DNA of 64,000 nt from Chitinophaga pinensis (GCA_945873755.1 CAMCEM010000003.1:1085-65084), one strand, 5' to 3'; positions 25,883 through 42,040 are shown, counted from the stretch's first letter. Notes: generated by a model not told the origin, from the letters alone. A program made the numbers and translations.

Positions 25883-25940
25883 AGAAAATATTCATTTAAA
25901 ATAATTTCCTGATTGCTCGAAATCCTTAATTAGACTGATG

Positions 25941-26014
<74 letters not shown>

Positions 26015-30032: not shown

Positions 30033-30824
30033 TTATTTCTTTTTAGTAGTATATTTTGTTCCCTTTCCAAGGAAAAAGTTAAAAGTATCGCTTCGTAAAC
30101 CTAGCCTTAAAGTTTCGCAAGGTATTACATCGTTTGGAGCAATATTTCCCAAACTTACATTAGCACCAACTAACTTTATAAAATAAGTTTGTTGGGCTTT
30201 TTGAGGAGCTTCCCAAATAATTTTTTCAGAAGGTATTTTGGTTAATATTTCTTGAACCAATCCTTCTCTTACTTCGCCACTGCTTCTATATACTCCCACG
30301 TTTCCAGCTTCCCTGGCTTCAGCTATTACTTTCCATGCACCAGCTTCTATTTCTGTTTCCATTAGCTGAATCCATTGGTAAGGAGGAATAATTTTTTCAA
30401 TGTCTTTACTTCCTACTTCGCTTAAAACGGTAACGTATTTACTCAATTTCTGAATATAATCTAGCTTTATGTCATGAGGTAACTCTATTGATCCGTCTGA
30501 TATCTCGGCATGAGTTAATTTAAATTTTTCAATTCCTTTTAAATAATCATCAAATTGGTTTCTTACTAAAAAAGCTTCAAATAAGGTACCTCCAAAATAT
30601 ACTATGATATTATTTTTTTGGTAAAGTTTTATCTTTTCGTCCAAGTTTGGTGTTACAAAAGCAGTTCCAAAACCTAATTTAATAATATCTATTAAGCCTC
30701 CCGAAACTGAAATCAAATCTTCAGCTTCTCTAAAACTCAATCCCTTGTCCATTACCATTGTTAATCCCATTTCGCGAGGTTTTAAACTGCGTTCAGGAAT
30801 CATTTTCAACTTAAAGTTATTCAT
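30033..30824 (-). CDS. comA: (2R)-phospho-3-sulfolactate synthase (ComA family)
   Basis: 'PERSLKPREMGLTMVMDKGLS' N-terminus and TIM-barrel-like length/pattern ('IDIIKLGFGT', 'AEISDGS') typical of the ComA/YitD family. Confidence 0.75.
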   Translation of the reverse strand: MNNFKLKMIPERSLKPREMGLTMVMDKGLSFREAEDLISVSGGLIDIIKLGFGTAFVTPNLDEKIKLYQKNNIIVYFGGTLFEAFLVRNQFDDYLKGIEKFKLTHAEISDGSIELPHDIKLDYIQKLSKYVTVLSEVGSKDIEKIIPPYQWIQLMETEIEAGAWKVIAEAREAGNVGVYRSSGEVREGLVQEILTKIPSEKIIWEAPQKAQQTYFIKLVGANVSLGNIAPNDVIPCETLRLGLRSDTFNFFLGKGTKYTTKKK

Positions 30825-30899: not shown

Positions 30900-32825
30900 T
30901 TAACTGACGTTAGTGTATATGGCTTTTATTTCATCAGCATATTTAGTTTCAACTACTTTGCGTTTAATTTTCTGCGTAGGAGTCATTTCGCCATCTTCTA
31001 AAGTAAATGGTTTTCTTTTTAAAGAGTAGTTCTTTACCCTTTCAAACTTCCCTAAATTAACTTCTAGTTTTTTCAAGTCTTCATCCATCCAATCAATTAT
31101 TTCTTTGTCTTTAATAAAAACATCTAAACTATCAAAAAACTCTTCTTTAAGATTAAAGTTTTCTTTTAATTCTTCTTTGCTTGGTACAATTAAGGCTGTT
31201 AAGTATTCTTGTCCATCGCCAATTAAAAATATTTGTTCTATTTTATTCGATTTCATGTAAACATTTTCAATAGGAGTAGGGTATATATTTTTGCCAAATG
31301 AATTTACAATTAAATTTTTAATTCTATCAGTTATTTTCAAATATCCTTTTTCAAATTTTCCTACATCACCTGTATGCAACCAACCTTCACTGTCAATTGC
31401 TTTTGCAGTTTCTTCAGGTAAATTCCAATAACCTTTAATTACATTTAATCCTCTTACTAAAATTTCGCCTTCTTCACATTCAAAATTTGGATTATACGAA
31501 TCGTAAGTTTGTAAAGTAATTATTTCTTTGGTTTCTATATTTTGTAATGCTACTTCATTTGCTTGGCCTATTCTTCCTACAGTTCCCCAAATTTGTCGGT
31601 GTACCTCGTTTGCACATACAAAAGGCGATGTTTCTGTTAATCCATAACCTTCAATAACTAATATATCCAAATTTGCAAAAAACTCACCCACATGTTTGGG
31701 TAAAGCACCACCTCCGCTAACCATTACACTCATTTTACCACCTAAACGCGCTTTTATTTTACTGTAAACTAATTTTTCGGCCAGTGCCAATTGTATATTT
31801 AAGAACAAACCATTGGGTAAATTATTTTCCTTATTTATTCTTCTTGTTTCACCAATTTTTAAAGCCCAATTAAATATTTTTAATTTAAAACCACCTTGAG
31901 CAGTTGCACTTTTTCTTACCCGTTCCTCAATTCTTTCTAAAAGTCGAGGTACAGTTAATATTGCTCTTGGCTGAACTTCTTGTATGTTAGCAGTTAACGA
32001 TTCTAAACTTTGTGCAAATGCAACTTTAAAACCTTTATAGGTACTATAATAATAAGTACAAGTTCTTTCATAAACATGGCACAATGGTAAAAAAGAAAGG
32101 AAAGTATAATCTCTGGTAACTAAAGGCAATAACATATCTGCCATTACTATATTACTCATAAAATTATTATGCGATAGCATTGCACCTTTTGGCTTTCCAG
32201 TTGTACCTGATGTATAAAGCAAACACGATAAATCATCGTAAGTAACTTTTTCTAATTCCTGTTCAATTAAATCTTTTGTATTACTGTATAATTTATTTCC
32301 TTCTTCTACTAATTTATTGTACGAAATAATTCCTTCGCCTTCAGTATCAAAAGCTGTTATAATAAATTTTAATGTTGGACAATTTACTTTTACTTTTTTT
32401 AATCGTTTTAATAAAAATGGAGTTCCTACTAAAATAACTTGAGAGCCAGAATCATTTATAATATGCTCAATATCCGCTTCTGACGAAGTAGGGTAAATAG
32501 ATACATTTACTAAACCTAACTGCATTAAACCTTGATCAAAGCAAATGTATTCAGGACAATTTTCTATTAACAATGCTGCTCTATCACCTTTTCTTAACCC
32601 TGCATTATATAAATAAGCTGAAATTGCATTTAATTGATAAAATATTTGTTCGTATGTTATGTCTTCGTACCTGTCTCTTTTTTTTACTTGTAAATAAGTA
32701 TCGGATGGTTTATTAATATTATTTGCAGTGTTTCTTAAAAAATAATGTAATGATTTAAAATTTTTGTATTGGTTTGTAATTATTTCGAACATAGTTTGTA
32801 TTTTTATAATGCGAATAAAATGCAT
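30900..32825 (-). CDS. Long-chain fatty acid-CoA ligase (AMP-forming adenylating enzyme)
   Basis: AMP-binding signature 'LLYTSGTTGKPKGAMLSHNN', 'GYGLTETSP', 'WLHTGDVG' and C-terminal 'TPTQKIKRK'. Confidence 0.9.
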   Translation of the reverse strand: MHFIRIIKIQTMFEIITNQYKNFKSLHYFLRNTANNINKPSDTYLQVKKRDRYEDITYEQIFYQLNAISAYLYNAGLRKGDRAALLIENCPEYICFDQGLMQLGLVNVSIYPTSSEADIEHIINDSGSQVILVGTPFLLKRLKKVKVNCPTLKFIITAFDTEGEGIISYNKLVEEGNKLYSNTKDLIEQELEKVTYDDLSCLLYTSGTTGKPKGAMLSHNNFMSNIVMADMLLPLVTRDYTFLSFLPLCHVYERTCTYYYSTYKGFKVAFAQSLESLTANIQEVQPRAILTVPRLLERIEERVRKSATAQGGFKLKIFNWALKIGETRRINKENNLPNGLFLNIQLALAEKLVYSKIKARLGGKMSVMVSGGGALPKHVGEFFANLDILVIEGYGLTETSPFVCANEVHRQIWGTVGRIGQANEVALQNIETKEIITLQTYDSYNPNFECEEGEILVRGLNVIKGYWNLPEETAKAIDSEGWLHTGDVGKFEKGYLKITDRIKNLIVNSFGKNIYPTPIENVYMKSNKIEQIFLIGDGQEYLTALIVPSKEELKENFNLKEEFFDSLDVFIKDKEIIDWMDEDLKKLEVNLGKFERVKNYSLKRKPFTLEDGEMTPTQKIKRKVVETKYADEIKAIYTNVS

Positions 32826-32847: not shown

Positions 32848-33067
32848 AATTTAATAAACTTTAAATTGTTTTTTATTGATTATTACTAAAAATGAAAATA
32901 TTTTAGCAGTCTTTAATTATTTTCTTTAAACTTTGGCTTAATATTTGTTTTTAAAAGTTTTGTAAAAAATTAATTTTCATTTTATCGTTTTATTATATTT
33001 ATAAATAATCAAAAGGTTAGTTAATTTGTTAATTTTGTTATTGTATTCAATTAAATATATAAAATTT

Positions 33068-34408
33068 ATGAAAGTTAAATTAATATTATTTGTGTTATCC
33101 TTAATTGTTATTAATTCTTGTTCAATTACTAAAGAACAAGGCAAAGCAGCAGATGATTTGTATTTTTCAACTAAAGATAAATCGAGTTACGGATCTGATA
33201 AAATAATTCCAATTGATATTGAAAAAATTAAAAAAGATTTTCCTTCACAAGTAGATCCCAATAAGCCGTCAGGTTATTATTCTGAGGGTACTCAAAATCA
33301 AAATGCAGTTGTTGGTTATCCTATTTATAAAGAAATTCAAGATTCGTTATATGCTATTAATCCTCAACTTTCTGGTTATTATCAACCCTACCCAATGCCA
33401 CCTTTTAGCCTTAGAGATCAATATTTACAAGCTAAAATGGAAAGACGCCAAGCAAGGCGATTAGCAAGAATTAACAATAGAAATAATTTCAATAATTTTG
33501 GCTTTAATTCTGGCTGGAATAATGGATGTATCAATGGCTGGAATAATAACGGTTGGAACAATGGTTGGAATAATGGTTTTTGTGGATTTAATTCGTTTAA
33601 TATTTGGAATGGATTCAACAATTGGGGACCGCAATTTAATATTGGTTGGAACAACTGGAATGGATGGAATACAGGATTAGGATTTGGTTTTAATAATTGG
33701 GGTTGGAACAATTTTTACAATCCTTGGGGCTTTTACAATCAAAATTTATATGGTTATAATCCTTGGGGTTATTACAATTATTATCCTAATTATGGAGGTG
33801 GAAATGGAGAAATAAGAAATACTAATCCTGGTCAATCTAAACCTCGCCAAGTAATTGGCACCAATTTACCAGCTACAAATGGCGGTACAATTGACAATCC
33901 AAATCCTAATCCATTAAAATATACACAATCCCGAAGCAGTAACGATGCAAATATTGATCCTGCTATTCAAATTCCAAATCAAAGTAGAGCCAATGGAAAT
34001 GGAGGTGTATTAATACCTACTCCTTCTGGTGTTCAGTATATATTGCCAAGCAGAGATAATAATGCACCTAAAAGTTATGAAACTTTTGAAAAATCGGTTG
34101 AGGTAGAAAAACAACAAGTAGAAATTCAAAAGGCAAATCCACAAATTTTTTATCAAAAACCTGTTGAACCAACTGTAGTTACTCCTAGTCCAAGTAGGTC
34201 AAATACTCCTGCTCCAACTAACCCACAACCTCAATATGTTCCGCCTAGCTATCAACAGCCAGCTAATAACCAACCAGTTTATACTCCTTCTCGATCTAAC
34301 AATGGTGGCAGTTCAGGCGGAGGAGGATCAAATAGTGGCAGCAGAGGTTCAAGTGGAGGAAGCAGTGGAGGTGGAAGTAATAGTGGTGGAGGTTCTAGAC
34401 CAAGATAA
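33068..34408 (+). CDS. Lipoprotein with an extreme Asn/Trp/Gly/aromatic low-complexity core and a Gly/Ser-rich tail
   Basis: The ATG at 33068 gives 'MKVKLILFVLSLIVINSC' (lipobox). Residues encoded at about 33473-33808 are almost only N/G/W/F/Y. A P/Q-rich segment follows, then a G/S-rich C-terminus (about 34298-34405). Confidence 0.65.
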   Translation: MKVKLILFVLSLIVINSCSITKEQGKAADDLYFSTKDKSSYGSDKIIPIDIEKIKKDFPSQVDPNKPSGYYSEGTQNQNAVVGYPIYKEIQDSLYAINPQLSGYYQPYPMPPFSLRDQYLQAKMERRQARRLARINNRNNFNNFGFNSGWNNGCINGWNNNGWNNGWNNGFCGFNSFNIWNGFNNWGPQFNIGWNNWNGWNTGLGFGFNNWGWNNFYNPWGFYNQNLYGYNPWGYYNYYPNYGGGNGEIRNTNPGQSKPRQVIGTNLPATNGGTIDNPNPNPLKYTQSRSSNDANIDPAIQIPNQSRANGNGGVLIPTPSGVQYILPSRDNNAPKSYETFEKSVEVEKQQVEIQKANPQIFYQKPVEPTVVTPSPSRSNTPAPTNPQPQYVPPSYQQPANNQPVYTPSRSNNGGSSGGGGSNSGSRGSSGGSSGGGSNSGGGSRPR

Positions 34409-34433
34409 ACTTTAAACTTTTAATTTTATTAAT

Positions 34434-35966
34434 ATGAAAAAAATTGTTTTGGCTACTTTTAGTGTATGCCTTTCATTTTACACTTATGCTCAAAATGAGC
34501 AAGATGTTTTACGTTATTCGCAAAATAAAATATTTGGCTCAGCACGTGTTTTAGGAGCTGGTGGTGCATTTGGTGCATTGGGTGCCGATTTAAGCTCTAT
34601 AGCAATTAACCCAGCTGGAATTGCGCTATACAGGCGAAGTGAAACTGCAGGAAGTTTGGCTATTTCAGCTTATTTTAATGATAATAGATATATAGAAAGT
34701 ACTACTTTTGAATCAAAAACGGCTTTGAATATACCTCAAATAGGTTTTGTTTTTAATAAAATGCAACAAGGCTTTAAAGGCGATGAAACAGAAGGTTTGG
34801 TCAGCTACTCTTTTGCTTTTGGTATAAATAGATTAAACGATTTTAACCAAAATAATATTTTTACTGGGGTAAACACTAAATCGAGTATTGCAGATTATTT
34901 TGCTGAATTAGCAAATGGTAAAACTTTTCCGGGCTCAAACCCATATAGTTTTTACAATAACAATATTCCGGGTATGGCTTGGAATACTTATTTAATCGAT
35001 TCTGCAGCACCATTAAAATATGCTTCTACATTTGAAAGTAAAAACGATACCAATTTTTCGATACAACAATCGGGCATAGCTAAAGTTATTGGAAACATTA
35101 ACGAATACAATTTTTCAAGTGGTTTAAATGTTTCTAATATGTTTTATTTTGGAGCATCTTTATTAATTCAAAATGTAAATTATGAATCAAATTCTGAATT
35201 TAAAGAAAGTGTTCTAACAAGCAGTAGGTCAAATAATTTATATCAAGGCAGTAATTTTACTTCAATTCTTAAAACATCTGGAAGTGGAATAGGAGGCAGG
35301 TTTGGTTTTATATTTAAACCATTTTATTATTTTAGATGTGGAGTAAGTTATACAACTGCCGTTAGGTTAAATTTAAAAGATGAATACAGTTATGGATTAA
35401 ATTCGCAAATTAAAGGGATTAACACTTATGTATTTAGCGAAAATGAAAGAACAGATAGTTGGGAATATGATATTGTTACACCAAGTAAATTAACATTAAG
35501 CACCTCTTTTATATTTAAAAAATTAGGTTTTATTTCAATAGATTGGGATCAAGTTGATTATAGTTCTGCTAGAATTACTTCTCAAAAAGAGTTATTTATT
35601 AATGCAAACAAAAATGTGAGTGAATTATATAAAAAAGCCTACAATTTAAGAATAGGATCTGAGTTAAAGTATAAAGACACCCGTTTTAGGTTAGGATATG
35701 CAAATTATGGAAGTCCTTTTAAAGATAATTCATTAGGAGTTTCTTTAGATAATCCAACCCAAACTTTAACAGGTGGTTTAGGTTTTATTTTCCCAACAAT
35801 TGATAATTATGGTACTGATTTTTTTATAGATGGTGCTTTGGCTTATTCTTGGGTTAAAAACTATAATACACCCTATCAATTAGAAAATAAAGGCAAAACT
35901 AGTTATACTGTCGAAAATAACTTTTCAATGATAAATGTTATAATAACAGCAGGTTTAAGATTTTAA
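34434..35966 (+). CDS. FadL/TodX-like outer-membrane beta-barrel protein
   Basis: Signal peptide ending 'YAQ'. 'GAGGAFGALGADLSSIAINPAGIA' N-terminal segment as in FadL-type transport barrels. Alternating strands. C-terminal 'TAGLRF'. Confidence 0.55.
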   Translation: MKKIVLATFSVCLSFYTYAQNEQDVLRYSQNKIFGSARVLGAGGAFGALGADLSSIAINPAGIALYRRSETAGSLAISAYFNDNRYIESTTFESKTALNIPQIGFVFNKMQQGFKGDETEGLVSYSFAFGINRLNDFNQNNIFTGVNTKSSIADYFAELANGKTFPGSNPYSFYNNNIPGMAWNTYLIDSAAPLKYASTFESKNDTNFSIQQSGIAKVIGNINEYNFSSGLNVSNMFYFGASLLIQNVNYESNSEFKESVLTSSRSNNLYQGSNFTSILKTSGSGIGGRFGFIFKPFYYFRCGVSYTTAVRLNLKDEYSYGLNSQIKGINTYVFSENERTDSWEYDIVTPSKLTLSTSFIFKKLGFISIDWDQVDYSSARITSQKELFINANKNVSELYKKAYNLRIGSELKYKDTRFRLGYANYGSPFKDNSLGVSLDNPTQTLTGGLGFIFPTIDNYGTDFFIDGALAYSWVKNYNTPYQLENKGKTSYTVENNFSMINVIITAGLRF

Positions 35967-39074: not shown

Positions 39075-39902
39075 ATGAACCAAAAAGTATCAAAAAAAGA
39101 AGAAAGTAAAGCGAGCGGAATTTTTGCTTCGCTAGCCATTCCAATGTTAGTTGGAGTAGGAATTTTATTATGGATGTTTGTATTAGGTAATCCTAGCAAC
39201 TTTGCAGATGGAGCAACTCGACACCATCCTGTTAAAGATGGCATAGGCTCGGTTTTAGGACTAATATATTTAGGAGGATTTATTGTACCAATTTTATTAT
39301 CGTTGGTTTTAATGAGTATTACTTTCTCAATTGAGCGTTTTTTAACAATTGCAAAAGCTTCTGGTAAAAAATCTGCTGAATCATTTGTACGAAAAGTAAA
39401 AGTTAACTTAGCAGCAGGAAATGTTGATGAAGCAATAAAAGAATGTGATGCTCAACAAGGTTCGGTTGCTAATGTAATAAAAGCAGCATTGCATAAATAC
39501 AAAGAAATGCAAGGCGAAAGCACCATGGATAGAGATCAAAAAGTATTAGCAATTCAAAAAGAAATTGAAGAAGCTACATCTTTAGAGTTACCAATGTTAG
39601 AAAAAAACTTAGTAATTATTGCTACAATGGCCTCGGTTTCTACTTTGGTTGCATTATTAGGAACAGTATTAGGTATGATCAAGGCGTTCTCGGCATTAGG
39701 TAACGCTGGTGCTCCTGATTCAACTGCCTTAGCTACGGGTATTTCTGAAGCACTTATCAATACAGCATTAGGAATTGGTAATTCAGCAGTTGCAATTATT
39801 ATGTATAATGTTTTTACAACTAAAATTGATAAAATTACTTATACAATTGACGAAGCTGGTTTTAGCATTGTTCAAAACTTTGCTTCATCGCACAAGCGTT
39901 AG
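39075..39902 (+). CDS. exbB: MotA/TolQ/ExbB proton-channel protein
   Basis: Three TM segments and conserved C-terminal 'GTVLGMIKAF...IATGISEALINTALG'. Heads an exbD-exbD-tonB operon. Confidence 0.9.
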   Translation: MNQKVSKKEESKASGIFASLAIPMLVGVGILLWMFVLGNPSNFADGATRHHPVKDGIGSVLGLIYLGGFIVPILLSLVLMSITFSIERFLTIAKASGKKSAESFVRKVKVNLAAGNVDEAIKECDAQQGSVANVIKAALHKYKEMQGESTMDRDQKVLAIQKEIEEATSLELPMLEKNLVIIATMASVSTLVALLGTVLGMIKAFSALGNAGAPDSTALATGISEALINTALGIGNSAVAIIMYNVFTTKIDKITYTIDEAGFSIVQNFASSHKR

Positions 39903-39964
39903 TTTTATTGCAATTTTTTATTGCAAATTTTAATTTAATAATTTAAAAAAAATAAAACAGACAA

Positions 39965-40561
39965 ATGGCTAAAGTAAAAGTACCTCGTAAAAGCACATCG
40001 GTTGATATGACCGCAATGACTGACGTTGCGTTCCTATTGTTAACATTTTTTATGTTAGCTACTCAGTTTAAACCCGATGAACCAGTTCAGGTGTTAACGC
40101 CATCATCTGTTGCCGAAATTCCACTTCCAGACGTTGATGTAATGCTAATTACAATTAGCAACGACAATAGAGTATTCTTTGATTTACAAGGTGAACATTA
40201 CAAAAAAACTTTACTTGAAAAAATGAGTAAAAAATTTAATGTAACATTTACCGATGATGAAAAGAAAAAATTTTCAGATATGAGTAGTTTTGGTTTGCCA
40301 TTTGCGCAACTAAAACAATACATAAACTTGAGTTCTGAAAAAAGAAAAGAGTTACAATCAACAGGAATTCCATACGATTCGTTAAATAATGAATTGAGTG
40401 AATGGGTTTGGCAAAGTCGTTTAACTAATAATGGCGTTCGCGTTGCTATTAAAGGCGATAGAGATGTGAGTTATCCCGCAATAAAACAAGTAATTAATAC
40501 GCTACAACAAAGAGATGTAAATAGATTTAATTTTATTACATCTATGGAAGGCGCTCAATAA
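39965..40561 (+). CDS. exbD: ExbD/TolR biopolymer transport protein
   Basis: 'DMTAMTDVAFLLLTFFML' N-terminal TM signature. Operon context. Confidence 0.85.
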   Translation: MAKVKVPRKSTSVDMTAMTDVAFLLLTFFMLATQFKPDEPVQVLTPSSVAEIPLPDVDVMLITISNDNRVFFDLQGEHYKKTLLEKMSKKFNVTFTDDEKKKFSDMSSFGLPFAQLKQYINLSSEKRKELQSTGIPYDSLNNELSEWVWQSRLTNNGVRVAIKGDRDVSYPAIKQVINTLQQRDVNRFNFITSMEGAQ

Positions 40562-40583
40562 TATTAAAGAAAGGAATTAAAAA

Positions 40584-41237
40584 ATGGCAGAAATAGAAGG
40601 TGGAGGAGGCGGTAATAAAAAAGGTGGGAAACCACATGGTAAAAAACTTTCAACTAGAGTAGATTTTACTCCAATGGTTGATTTAGGTTTTTTACTCATT
40701 ACCTTTTTTATGTTAACAACCTCCCTTAACAAGCCCAAAACAATGGAGTTGAACATGCCTGTAAAAGGGGATGAAATAGATAAAACTGCTGTTAAAGTAT
40801 CGCAAACTGTTACGGTACTTTTAACAGGTAACAATCAAATACTGTATTATTTTAGTGATCCTGTAACGCTAGATCCTATGACACCACAAATTACTGATTA
40901 CAGTGCTGGAGGAATTAGACCAATGCTATTGCGCGAAAACAGAAAACGTGTACCTAAGATAGATTCTATTCAGGTTTATAAAGATTTGTTTAGAATAAGC
41001 AAAATCAGTGAATCTGATATGAAAGCCAATATATCTCGTTTAAAAGCTGATCCAGAAGGTTTAATTGTAATTATTAAAGCCGATGATAATGCAAAGTTCA
41101 ACAATGTAGTAGACATACTAGATGAAATGTTAATTTGTAATATTGGTCGTTATGCTATAGTAGATATTTCGGAACCTGAAAAGGAATTAATAAAAAATTC
41201 TGCAACGCTTTTAGAAGCAGCAACAAAAAATAAATAA
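40584..41237 (+). CDS. exbD: ExbD/TolR biopolymer transport protein (second paralogue)
   Basis: 'DFTPMVDLGFLLITFFMLTT' TM signature. Operon context. Confidence 0.85.
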   Translation: MAEIEGGGGGNKKGGKPHGKKLSTRVDFTPMVDLGFLLITFFMLTTSLNKPKTMELNMPVKGDEIDKTAVKVSQTVTVLLTGNNQILYYFSDPVTLDPMTPQITDYSAGGIRPMLLRENRKRVPKIDSIQVYKDLFRISKISESDMKANISRLKADPEGLIVIIKADDNAKFNNVVDILDEMLICNIGRYAIVDISEPEKELIKNSATLLEAATKNK

Positions 41238-41245
41238 TTTTAATT

Positions 41246-42040
41246 ATGGCAGAAACAAGTATTTTTGATAACAGTTGGGTAGATATGGTTTTTGAAGGCC
41301 GTAACCAACAATATGGCGCTTTTGTTCTACGTAAAAAAAGTAGCAACTATACCTTAAAAGGAATAATTTTTTCAATTATTGGTTTTTCTTTAGCCATTGC
41401 AGCTCCTGTAATAGTAAATTATTTAAAATCGCAAATACCTAAAGAAAACATTATAGTAGAAGCTGAAGTAACTAAGCTAGATGCACCTCCACCAATCGAT
41501 GAAAGTGCACCACCACCACCACCTCCACCACCACCACCACCGGTAAAGAGTACTATTAAATTTACTCCACCCGAAATTAAAAAGGATGAAGATGTAGCTG
41601 AACCACCTCCAACGCAAGACGAAGCAGCAAAAGTGGATGTAGGAGCTCAAACAGTTATTGGAGATCCGGATGCTAAAGAAGTATTAGTGGAAGAAACTGG
41701 AAACGGAAATGATGGTGAAATATTAATTGAAGCCGAAATTAATCCTGAATATCCAGGAGGAGAAGAAAAAATGCAAGAATATTTATCTTCAGCAGTGGAG
41801 TATCCACCAATGGCGAAGGAAAATAATATAGAAGGTAGAGTTGTACTTCGTTTTGCTGTTATGGCTGATGGGAAAATTGATAATATTCAAATTTTAAATA
41901 AACCTGCTTTAGGATGGGGTTGCGAAGCTGCAGTAGAAAAAGCTGTTAAAAGTATGCCAAGATGGAGTCCTGGAAAACAACAAGGACGACCAGTTGCGGT
42001 TTATTTTACATTACCTTTTCAATTTAAGTTAGACCAATAA
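41246..42040 (+). CDS. tonB: TonB-family energy transducer
   Basis: N-terminal TM anchor, poly-Pro spacer ('APPPPPPPPPPPPV'), and C-terminal TonB domain 'PEYPGGEEKMQEYL...YPPMAKENNIEGRVVLRFAV'. Confidence 0.9.
   Translation: MAETSIFDNSWVDMVFEGRNQQYGAFVLRKKSSNYTLKGIIFSIIGFSLAIAAPVIVNYLKSQIPKENIIVEAEVTKLDAPPPIDESAPPPPPPPPPPPVKSTIKFTPPEIKKDEDVAEPPPTQDEAAKVDVGAQTVIGDPDAKEVLVEETGNGNDGEILIEAEINPEYPGGEEKMQEYLSSAVEYPPMAKENNIEGRVVLRFAVMADGKIDNIQILNKPALGWGCEAAVEKAVKSMPRWSPGKQQGRPVAVYFTLPFQFKLDQ

Follow-up and report, generated by a model that had tools for sequence, protein, structure and literature searches.

A FadL-fold barrel and a largely disordered, aromatic-rich lipoprotein encoded as a conserved gene pair in Bacteroidota

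On a 64,000-nucleotide stretch of DNA from Chitinophaga pinensis (GCA_945873755.1 CAMCEM010000003.1:1085-65084), analysed here over its full length and called the window, a gene for a lipoprotein with an Asn-, Gly- and Trp-rich core is followed by a gene for a FadL-like outer-membrane barrel (positions 33068-35966), and the question is what such a pair could do in the cell envelope. A sequence-only reading of the window had proposed a cargo-plus-barrel module, in which the lipoprotein would be an amyloid-like subunit and the barrel its dedicated exporter, as in the curli (CsgG) and Fap (FapF) systems. Our data show that the pair is a genuine and strongly conserved outer-membrane module. The two-gene part of this proposal thus stands, whereas export of an amyloid cargo in the manner of curli or Fap is unsupported; self-association of the core is still plausible.

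To what extent the two genes belong together was read from a genome scan with a profile of the barrel, which returned 80 Bacteroidota loci (Bacteroidia, Bacteroidales, Flavobacteriales, Chitinophagales, Sphingobacteriia, Rikenellaceae and Tenuifilaceae), 73 of which have upstream DNA and could be tested. In every one of the 73, an open reading frame (ORF) on the same strand ends 3 to 265 nt before the barrel gene, down to a barrel identity of 31%, and this upstream ORF always contains an 80-aa stretch made up of N/G/W/Y/F at 59-90%, beginning at about residues 64-195. Of these upstream ORFs, 69 have a lipobox, and almost all close with a G/S-rich tail whose C-terminus is basic (RPR, RRR, RKR or GRR). 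The synteny that the sequence-only reading had asked for in other Bacteroidota is thus found wherever it could be looked for, and the lipoprotein and the barrel stay paired where every other neighbour differs. One cultured carrier was met, Perlabentimonas gracilis (locus L040 of the scan); the other named homologues come from metagenome-assembled genomes and are labelled 'hypothetical', 'FadL family' or 'YgcG', the last label being an artefact of the Gly-rich tail. A profile search with the lipoprotein among 1.84 billion representatives gave 245 representative clusters, against at least 6089 protein clusters (90% identity) at E<=1e-20 for the barrel family, which indicates that sequence methods cannot keep up with the evolution of the lipoprotein and that the remaining members are recovered by synteny. 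The pair thereby illustrates how fast-evolving disordered partners escape sequence searches and how synteny finds them.

The lipoprotein gene occupies 33068-34408 on the + strand and encodes 446 aa plus a stop codon. The open frame in the ORF list runs from 33026 to 34408 with a TTG start at 33026, and we set the start at the ATG of 33068 because the homologues begin with MKVK. The signal peptide II with its lipobox (33068-33121, +; MKVKLILFVLSLIVINS|C18) ends at the lipidated Cys18, which is invariant in the alignment of sequence homologues. The 47 sequence homologues are built alike. The lipobox is followed by the conserved motif DD[VL]Y[YF], the N-terminal region takes up about 115 aa, and then come a basic helix with ERRQxRRLAR, the core, short motifs (SRPRQVIGSNLP... 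and G.LINTPNGVQYIAP), a P/Q/N stretch and a G/S tail with an SRPR end. In the window, the acidic-aromatic motif is DDLYF (aa 29-33; 33152-33166, +), located in the family 11-16 residues after the lipid Cys, with D29, D30 and Y32 invariant; by analogy with BamH and BamG, this segment is a candidate docking site for the barrel. The basic helix (aa 115-139, ...ERRQARRLARINNR; 33410-33484, +) stands directly before the core and is predicted by AlphaFold2 (AF2) with a predicted local distance difference test score (pLDDT) of up to 81; its consensus in the homologues is ERxQxRRLARxNNR, and SRLRRF or SRIRRF replaces it at the equivalent place in distant members. After the core come the disordered P/Q/N-rich segment (aa 248-400; 33809-34267, +), with the short conserved motifs SKPRQVIGTNLPATNGGT.DNPNPNP and GVLIPTPSGVQYILP, and the Gly/Ser-rich tail with its SRPR end (34268-34405, +), as had been described for the end of the protein. 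The basic C-terminus is conserved in the loci examined, R444 being invariant and P445 and R446 nearly so.

The AF2 model of the lipoprotein has a mean pLDDT of 45, with 317 of the 446 residues below 50, so that about 70% of the protein is predicted to be disordered. It contains only a few helices ahead of the core and two weak hairpins, and the P/Q/N segment is modelled with low confidence (one weak hairpin, 314-325, and one helix, 340-356). No Pfam or NCBIfam family matches the lipoprotein, nine distant members likewise have no match above threshold, and a sequence search against the solved structures of the PDB returned noise only. By Pfam, neither the peptidoglycan-binding domains OmpA_C, LysM and SPOR nor a type IX C-terminal sorting domain was found in it. 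The full sequences of distant members repeat the same plan, from DDVYY through an acidic linker, SRLRRF and the aromatic core to an extended cationic region rich in Ser/Thr/Pro/Arg and a basic end, and the charge C-terminal of the core has a median of +13 in 69 members (range +3 to +79). In some lineages, this cationic tail has grown into long tandem peptide repeats, for example SPSRSTTPRRQVSPSRSNRTTTPTRTR several times over (L075, aa 400-700; L044, aa 300-400; L059, aa 470-530), giving proteins of up to 700 aa with a charge of up to +79.

The Asn/Gly/aromatic core (aa 136-247, 112 aa; 33473-33808, +), whose boundaries had been placed exactly by the first description, is composed of 38 N, 23 G, 13 W, 12 F and 9 Y, that is 34% Asn, 21% Gly and 30% Trp/Phe/Tyr. 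As had been counted before, it has 13 Trp, which are all those of the lipoprotein, and one Arg as its sole charged residue. N/G/W/Y/F account for 85% of the core, against 42% in the next-richest 112-aa stretch of any ORF in the window. The imperfect GWNN repeats noticed earlier are real at the DNA level, where Tandem Repeats Finder gives a period of 12 and 5.4 copies at 33511-33578. The only sequence-conserved element of the core in the homologues is GPxxNFGWNxxNGWNxGxGF, written GPxFNIGWNxWNGWNTGxGF for the core of the window, with N195, G199 and W200 as conserved positions, and AF2 puts short hairpins in it. Over 68 members, the core has a median length of 115 aa and is about 33% aromatic overall, but Trp varies from 1 to 23% and Tyr from 0 to 38% between clades, W, Y and F being swapped for one another. 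In contrast to this exchange of residues, the aromatics are more evenly spaced than in shuffled sequences (z < -1 in 82% of the cores and > +1 in none). Conservation of the core in orthologues, on which the amyloid proposal depended, thus holds for composition and aromatic patterning and fails for sequence, and it is the composition and patterning that are under selection. Selection of this kind, without conserved sequence, typifies cohesive 'sticker-spacer' domains rather than registered amyloid repeats, and in eukaryotic prion-like domains evenly spaced, interchangeable aromatics favour condensates over fibrils. The core is therefore suggested to be a cohesive sticker-spacer domain, whose composition plausibly favours self-association. 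A PAPA-like prion-propensity score of about 0.16, against a usual threshold of 0.05, points the same way, although the value is approximate and indicative only.

Two further ORFs lie over the core, one antisense (33418-33711, -, 97 aa) and one in another frame (33498-33680, +, 60 aa). Both are by-products of the repetitive AAT/GGT/TGG-rich DNA and not genes. The converse idea, that the low-complexity lipoprotein ORF is itself an artefact, was rejected, since this ORF is conserved and the overlapping ones are by-products of the repeat.

The barrel gene (34434-35966, +; 510 aa) starts 25 nt past the stop codon of the lipoprotein gene and on the same strand, as had been reported. No terminator-like site was found in the spacer (34409-34433, +; 25 nt), which makes co-transcription of both genes likely. 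The attribution to the FadL type is right as regards the fold, although with 26.8 bits the window protein stays just below the 29.7-bit cut-off of the Pfam Toluene_X model (PF03349); a PF03349 match is precomputed for many close homologues, and the window barrel has no NCBIfam match (E<=1). The AF2 model built from 19 homologues (pLDDT 78.8, predicted template modelling score 0.77) has 14 strands and an N-terminal plug, or hatch. Foldseek matches it significantly with FadL-superfamily structures alone (E 1e-16 to 1e-10), namely Pseudomonas FadL, E. coli FadL, TodX and TbuX and, equally well, the BamG of P. gingivalis and B. thetaiotaomicron, with target-normalised template modelling scores of 0.56-0.66 against FadL, TodX and TbuX. 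Since importers and BamG are matched equally well, the fold alone cannot place the barrel within the superfamily.

Among solved structures, the barrel-family profile reaches TbuX (2e-9), Pseudomonas FadL (3e-6), E. coli FadL (6e-6) and CymD (0.02) and no BamG or PorV chain, a second barrel profile reaches TbuX alone, and the single barrel sequence gives nothing useful; importers of hydrophobic substrates are thus the only significant sequence matches, which leans towards one of the outcomes that the sequence-only reading had itself named as refuting its proposal. With FadL, TodX and TbuX the barrel also shares the plug domain and an invariant NPA motif (aa 59-61; 34608-34616, +), which is constant in two alignments and in which N59, P60 and A61 align with the NPA of E. 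coli FadL in a hidden Markov model (HMM) alignment; the PDB contains the FadL mutants N33A, P34A and delta-NPA. Unlike these importers, it is about 60-80 residues larger, stays below the Pfam threshold and has an N-terminal extension of about 7-10 residues beyond E. coli FadL and TbuX, as offset in the HMM alignment. Unlike classical FadL, it is co-encoded with a lipoprotein partner in all loci examined. The extension belongs to the strongly conserved N-terminus of the mature barrel, QNExDALRYSQ... (aa 20-38, QNEQDVLRYSQNKIFGSAR; 34491-34547, +), with Q20, D24, R27 and S29 invariant, and this segment has a pLDDT of 31-67 in the model. There is no C-terminal extension, the last predicted strand being 493-509 of 510 with the end ...GLRF. 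The NCBIfam model of BamG (NF053685, cut-off 250 bits) gives 43.8 bits for the best family member, and those of PorV/PorQ (NF033709 and NF052325, cut-offs 90 and 325 bits) at most 35.3 and 21.5 bits for family members; the window barrel matches none of them. We conclude that the barrel belongs to a distinct Bacteroidota clade of the FadL superfamily and is neither BamG nor PorV. PorV and PorQ, the shuttles of type IX secretion, resemble it in that they too are barrels of the FadL superfamily, put to a new use in Bacteroidota as binders of proteins. Family members give weak PorV_fam matches (35 bits or less against 90), and the partner lipoprotein has no type IX C-terminal sorting domain.

On which side of the outer membrane the lipoprotein lies is a matter of prediction. 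In Bacteroidota, the lipoprotein export signal consists of at least two acidic residues within six residues of the lipid Cys (PMC12578637). In 66 of the 69 lipoprotein members there is no acidic residue at +2 to +7, the other three having one, and the first acidic pair comes at +11 to +16 in all 69. As the export signal is missing, the lipoprotein is predicted to face the periplasm by default.

A probable counterpart of the pair is found in Flavobacterium johnsoniae, where Fjoh_4939 is a Pro-tRNA ligase, Fjoh_4940 a lipoprotein with signal peptide II, classed as periplasm-facing and of unknown function, and Fjoh_4941 a FadL-type barrel (PMC12045153 and preprint); the accessions of Fjoh_4940 and Fjoh_4941 are A5FA28 and A5FA29. 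This layout is the synteny of prolyl-tRNA synthetase (proS), lipoprotein and barrel that prevails in our loci, which makes Fjoh_4940/4941 probable orthologues by synteny; the lipoprotein-barrel layout is that of the window, whose clade has an acyl-CoA synthetase gene in the place of proS. Both proteins were identified in the outer-membrane proteome and rise 2.6-fold (Fjoh_4940) and 5.6-fold (Fjoh_4941) upon TamL depletion, together with the LolA and LolB homologues, and in vesicles the Fjoh_4941 barrel was found and the Fjoh_4940 lipoprotein was not (PMC12045153). The literature searched does not mention Fjoh_4940/4941 beyond the TamL study. In Parabacteroides merdae, transposon mutants in two genes of the fadL family, NQ542_07320 and NQ542_08455, show a broad sensitivity towards hydrophobic xenobiotics (PMC12669032).

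The genomic neighbourhood adds to this picture. Upstream of the pair, 68 of 69 loci have their neighbouring gene on the other strand, and in 49 of the 52 loci sampled this neighbour is a divergent proS, a housekeeping setting which is not like that of an accessory biofilm locus. Only in the window's own clade is the position of proS taken by an acyl-CoA-synthetase-like gene, here a divergent gene for a 641-aa long-chain acyl-CoA-synthetase-like protein (30900-32825, -) whose best NCBIfam models are fatty-acid--CoA ligases, all below cut-off; an AMP-binding gene holds this position also in the close relatives L001, L004, L006 and L011, and no prolyl-tRNA synthetase was found within the 64-kb window. 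The combination of FadL with FadD is echoed by this neighbour. Downstream, the 65 loci with a neighbour to tally vary, with type IX secretion cargo in 12, a patatin-like phospholipase in 11, OmpH in 5 and thioesterases in 3, and no universal third gene follows the barrel. The patatin-like gene follows the barrel on the same strand in one clade (L002, 10852-11625; L015-L025, L029 and L060), with an overlap of 4 nt at the barrel stop codon in L002, which suggests a three-gene operon with a lipid-hydrolysing enzyme, and the thioesterase in three other loci is of the 4HBT type.

Starting from the anatomy of the two proteins, their pairing, the barrel fold, the predicted disorder and the missing export signal, we infer a complex, its orientation and a link to lipids: the pair would encode a core envelope complex of Bacteroidota, in which a FadL-family barrel and its disordered partner lipoprotein act in the traffic of lipids or other hydrophobic molecules or in outer-membrane homeostasis. 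We give this reading about even odds (roughly 0.5). The conserved lipid-proximal segment would dock on the barrel as BamH does on the FadL-like BamG, and the remainder of the lipoprotein would most probably hang, disordered, into the periplasm. There, the aromatic core may self-associate or bind hydrophobic or glycan ligands, and the cationic tail could touch the anionic peptidoglycan or the inner membrane, the pair as a whole serving to pass fatty acids, lipids or further hydrophobic compounds or to maintain the lipid homeostasis of the outer membrane. The precedent for a complex of this kind is given by FadL-like barrels that grip the N-terminal tail of a lipoprotein, namely BamG with BamH and the operonic BamH2-BamG2. 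A lipid role is proposed because of the importer-like sequence affinity of the barrel, its NPA hatch, the lipid-enzyme neighbours and the rise on TamL depletion, and the case for it is circumstantial.

Several points weigh against this reading. The complex is inferred from single-chain models and from analogy, and the periplasmic orientation is a prediction from a missing signal; the conserved DD pair might be an export signal that is private to the family or has shifted in position, and a private export route for the lipoprotein through the barrel is possible. The acyl-CoA synthetase, patatin and thioesterase neighbours are clade-specific and not universal. The extension of the barrel resembles that of BamG, which blocks the lateral transport path, and this argues against classical FadL transport. 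To our knowledge, there is no described precedent for a highly aggregation-prone aromatic core in the periplasm. In F. johnsoniae, the orthology rests on gene order, and the lack of Fjoh_4940 in vesicles may reflect a detection limit.

Among the alternatives, the one that survives best, although we hold it to be unlikely, is a surface scaffold of the BamG/BamH kind, in which the barrel would not transport, its N-terminus would fill the lateral opening and the lipoprotein would be held on the surface, perhaps joined to BAM or to another machine, its disordered regions acting on surface glycans, lipopolysaccharide or client proteins. Sequences rich in Trp, Tyr and Asn are typical of carbohydrate-binding surfaces, which would suit such a location. 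According to two studies from 2025, the BAM complex of Bacteroidota includes BamG, a FadL-like barrel, and the BamH2-BamG2 paralogues form an operon (PMC12611786, PMC12578637). BamG is set apart from transport FadLs by an N-terminus about 10-12 residues longer than that of FadL (PMC12578637), a C-terminal extension contacts BamD in F. johnsoniae, and BamH is elongated and has two domains and a carbohydrate-binding fold (PMC12611786, PMC12578637). The likeness with our pair is considerable, since both have a FadL-fold 14-strand barrel and a dedicated lipoprotein with a conserved lipid-proximal segment, the gene order of lipoprotein then barrel is that of BamH2-BamG2, the window barrel has a conserved N-terminal extension of 7-10 residues, which is BamG's distinguishing feature, two BamG structures are among the top four Foldseek matches and one family member gives the weak BamG match of 43.8 bits.

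Against this scaffold stand several differences from BamG and BamH. The 43.8 bits are far from the 250 that the BamG model needs, and the window barrel fails this model altogether; the sequence profiles lead to TbuX and FadL and to no BamG chain, and the C-terminal extension is absent. Unlike BamH, the lipoprotein is predicted to be disordered, belongs neither itself nor through its nine distant members to PF14092, and lacks the export signal in 66 of 69 members. On one Bacteroidales contig, a PF14092 gene (L084, 11670-12980, -) lies about 4 kb from the pair, which shows that this contig encodes BamH separately from the disordered lipoprotein. F. johnsoniae has Fjoh_4940/4941 on top of BamG/BamH (Fjoh_1412/0823) and BamG2/BamH2 (Fjoh_1686/1685), the corresponding tags in B. 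thetaiotaomicron being Bt4367/4306 for BamG-BamH and Bt1785/1786 for BamG2-BamH2. The BAM study in F. johnsoniae mentions neither Fjoh_4940 nor Fjoh_4941 in its main text or in the supplements consulted, and the subunits that co-purify there have other locus tags. An identity of the pair with BamG/BamH or BamG2/BamH2 was rejected on account of the different locus tags and the failed family models.

Less likely again is an envelope tether or spacer comparable to Lpp, Pal or OmpA, in which the disordered lipoprotein would bind the peptidoglycan or the inner membrane and the barrel would be mainly its anchor or assembly partner. Wall-tethered proteins are typically excluded from vesicles, and the lack of Fjoh_4940 from vesicles that contain Fjoh_4941 is in agreement with this idea, as are the predicted disorder and periplasmic orientation of the lipoprotein, the cationic tail reaching +79 in proteins of up to 700 aa, and the wide occurrence of the pair in a housekeeping context among the sampled Bacteroidota loci. 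In contrast, Pfam recognises no peptidoglycan-binding domain, the tail varies widely in length and in charge (+3 to +79), and the idea would not explain why a FadL-type barrel, with its hatch and NPA motif conserved, is always encoded alongside.

More doubtful still is the hypothesis that the core is a bacterial counterpart of the Phe-Gly (FG) nucleoporins and prion-like domains, forming a condensate or gel around a channel with a FadL-type lateral gate and thereby a sheltered, water-poor route or filter by which lipids or other hydrophobic molecules would move between the outer membrane and the remainder of the envelope. Like the FG-nucleoporins and the prion-like domains of FUS and hnRNPA1, the core is uncharged, has about one third of aromatics evenly spaced in Gly/Asn and keeps its composition as its sequence drifts; unlike them, it is bacterial, anchored to the outer membrane, Trp-rich and flanked by basic segments, and the likeness serves as a lead. 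The literature searched contains no account of this family of disordered lipoproteins with an aromatic core.

Export of the core to the surface as a functional-amyloid or prion-like subunit by the adjacent barrel, for which speak the conserved pairing, the conserved uncharged N/G/aromatic composition (polar, Asn/Gly-rich and self-association-prone beside an outer-membrane barrel, as in CsgA/CsgG and FapC/FapF), the high approximate prion-propensity score and the short AF2 hairpins in the GWN element, is the least probable of all, because the protein is a lipoprotein with signal peptide II and no export signal instead of a free subunit, the barrel is a plugged 14-strand FadL fold with NPA and not an open secretion pore of the CsgG/FapF type, no curlin, Fap or CsgG match was found by Pfam and no conserved nucleator or chaperone gene among the heterogeneous downstream neighbours, the pair lies beside proS in 49 of 52 sampled loci, the evenly spaced and interchangeable aromatics show only a short 4-aa GWNN repeat and no conserved register, and the larger part of the protein consists of a long, disordered and cationic tail of a sort foreign to amyloid subunits.

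Bacteroidota dominate communities of the gut, the mouth, soil and freshwater, and recent work has shown that the construction of their outer membrane departs from the E. coli model. In this phylum, barrels of the FadL kind have been co-opted as holders of lipoproteins within BAM and as protein shuttles in type IX secretion, and the pair described here looks like a further module of this sort. Barrel-lipoprotein pairs as such were already known in Bacteroidota, and this one is a separate, uncharacterised variant with a disordered aromatic-core partner. It spans the sampled classes and orders, and its probable F. johnsoniae counterpart is expressed and responds to a disturbed lipid homeostasis of the outer membrane. 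Should the core self-associate, bacteria would provide a genetically tractable example of a prion-like or FG-like domain anchored in the envelope, and if the gel hypothesis were true, the phase behaviour of a low-complexity domain would be widely conserved in the bacterial envelope. The pair is of moderate to high interest to envelope biologists.

Some minor features complete the description of the locus. A candidate Bacteroidota-type -7 promoter box, TAATTTTG (33031-33038, +), stands 30 nt before the start codon of the lipoprotein gene; it was read from the sequence by the consensus TAnnTTTG, which we take to be that of the Bacteroidota -7 box. A scan for sigma-70 promoters and terminators showed no enrichment over shuffled sequences, its model fitting Bacteroidota poorly. 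A tRNA-Ala (GGC) at 25940-26014 (-) is the only RNA gene found in the window. Adjoining the acyl-CoA synthetase gene is a phosphosulfolactate-synthase (ComA)-like gene (30033-30824, -; TIGR03849, 255 bits against a cut-off of 280), an arrangement kept in the close relative L001, and a link of this gene with sulfonolipid metabolism is speculation. Downstream of the pair, past GlmM-like and YchF-like genes, lies an ExbB-ExbD-ExbD-TonB cluster (39075-42040, +), which occurs in the same order in L001.

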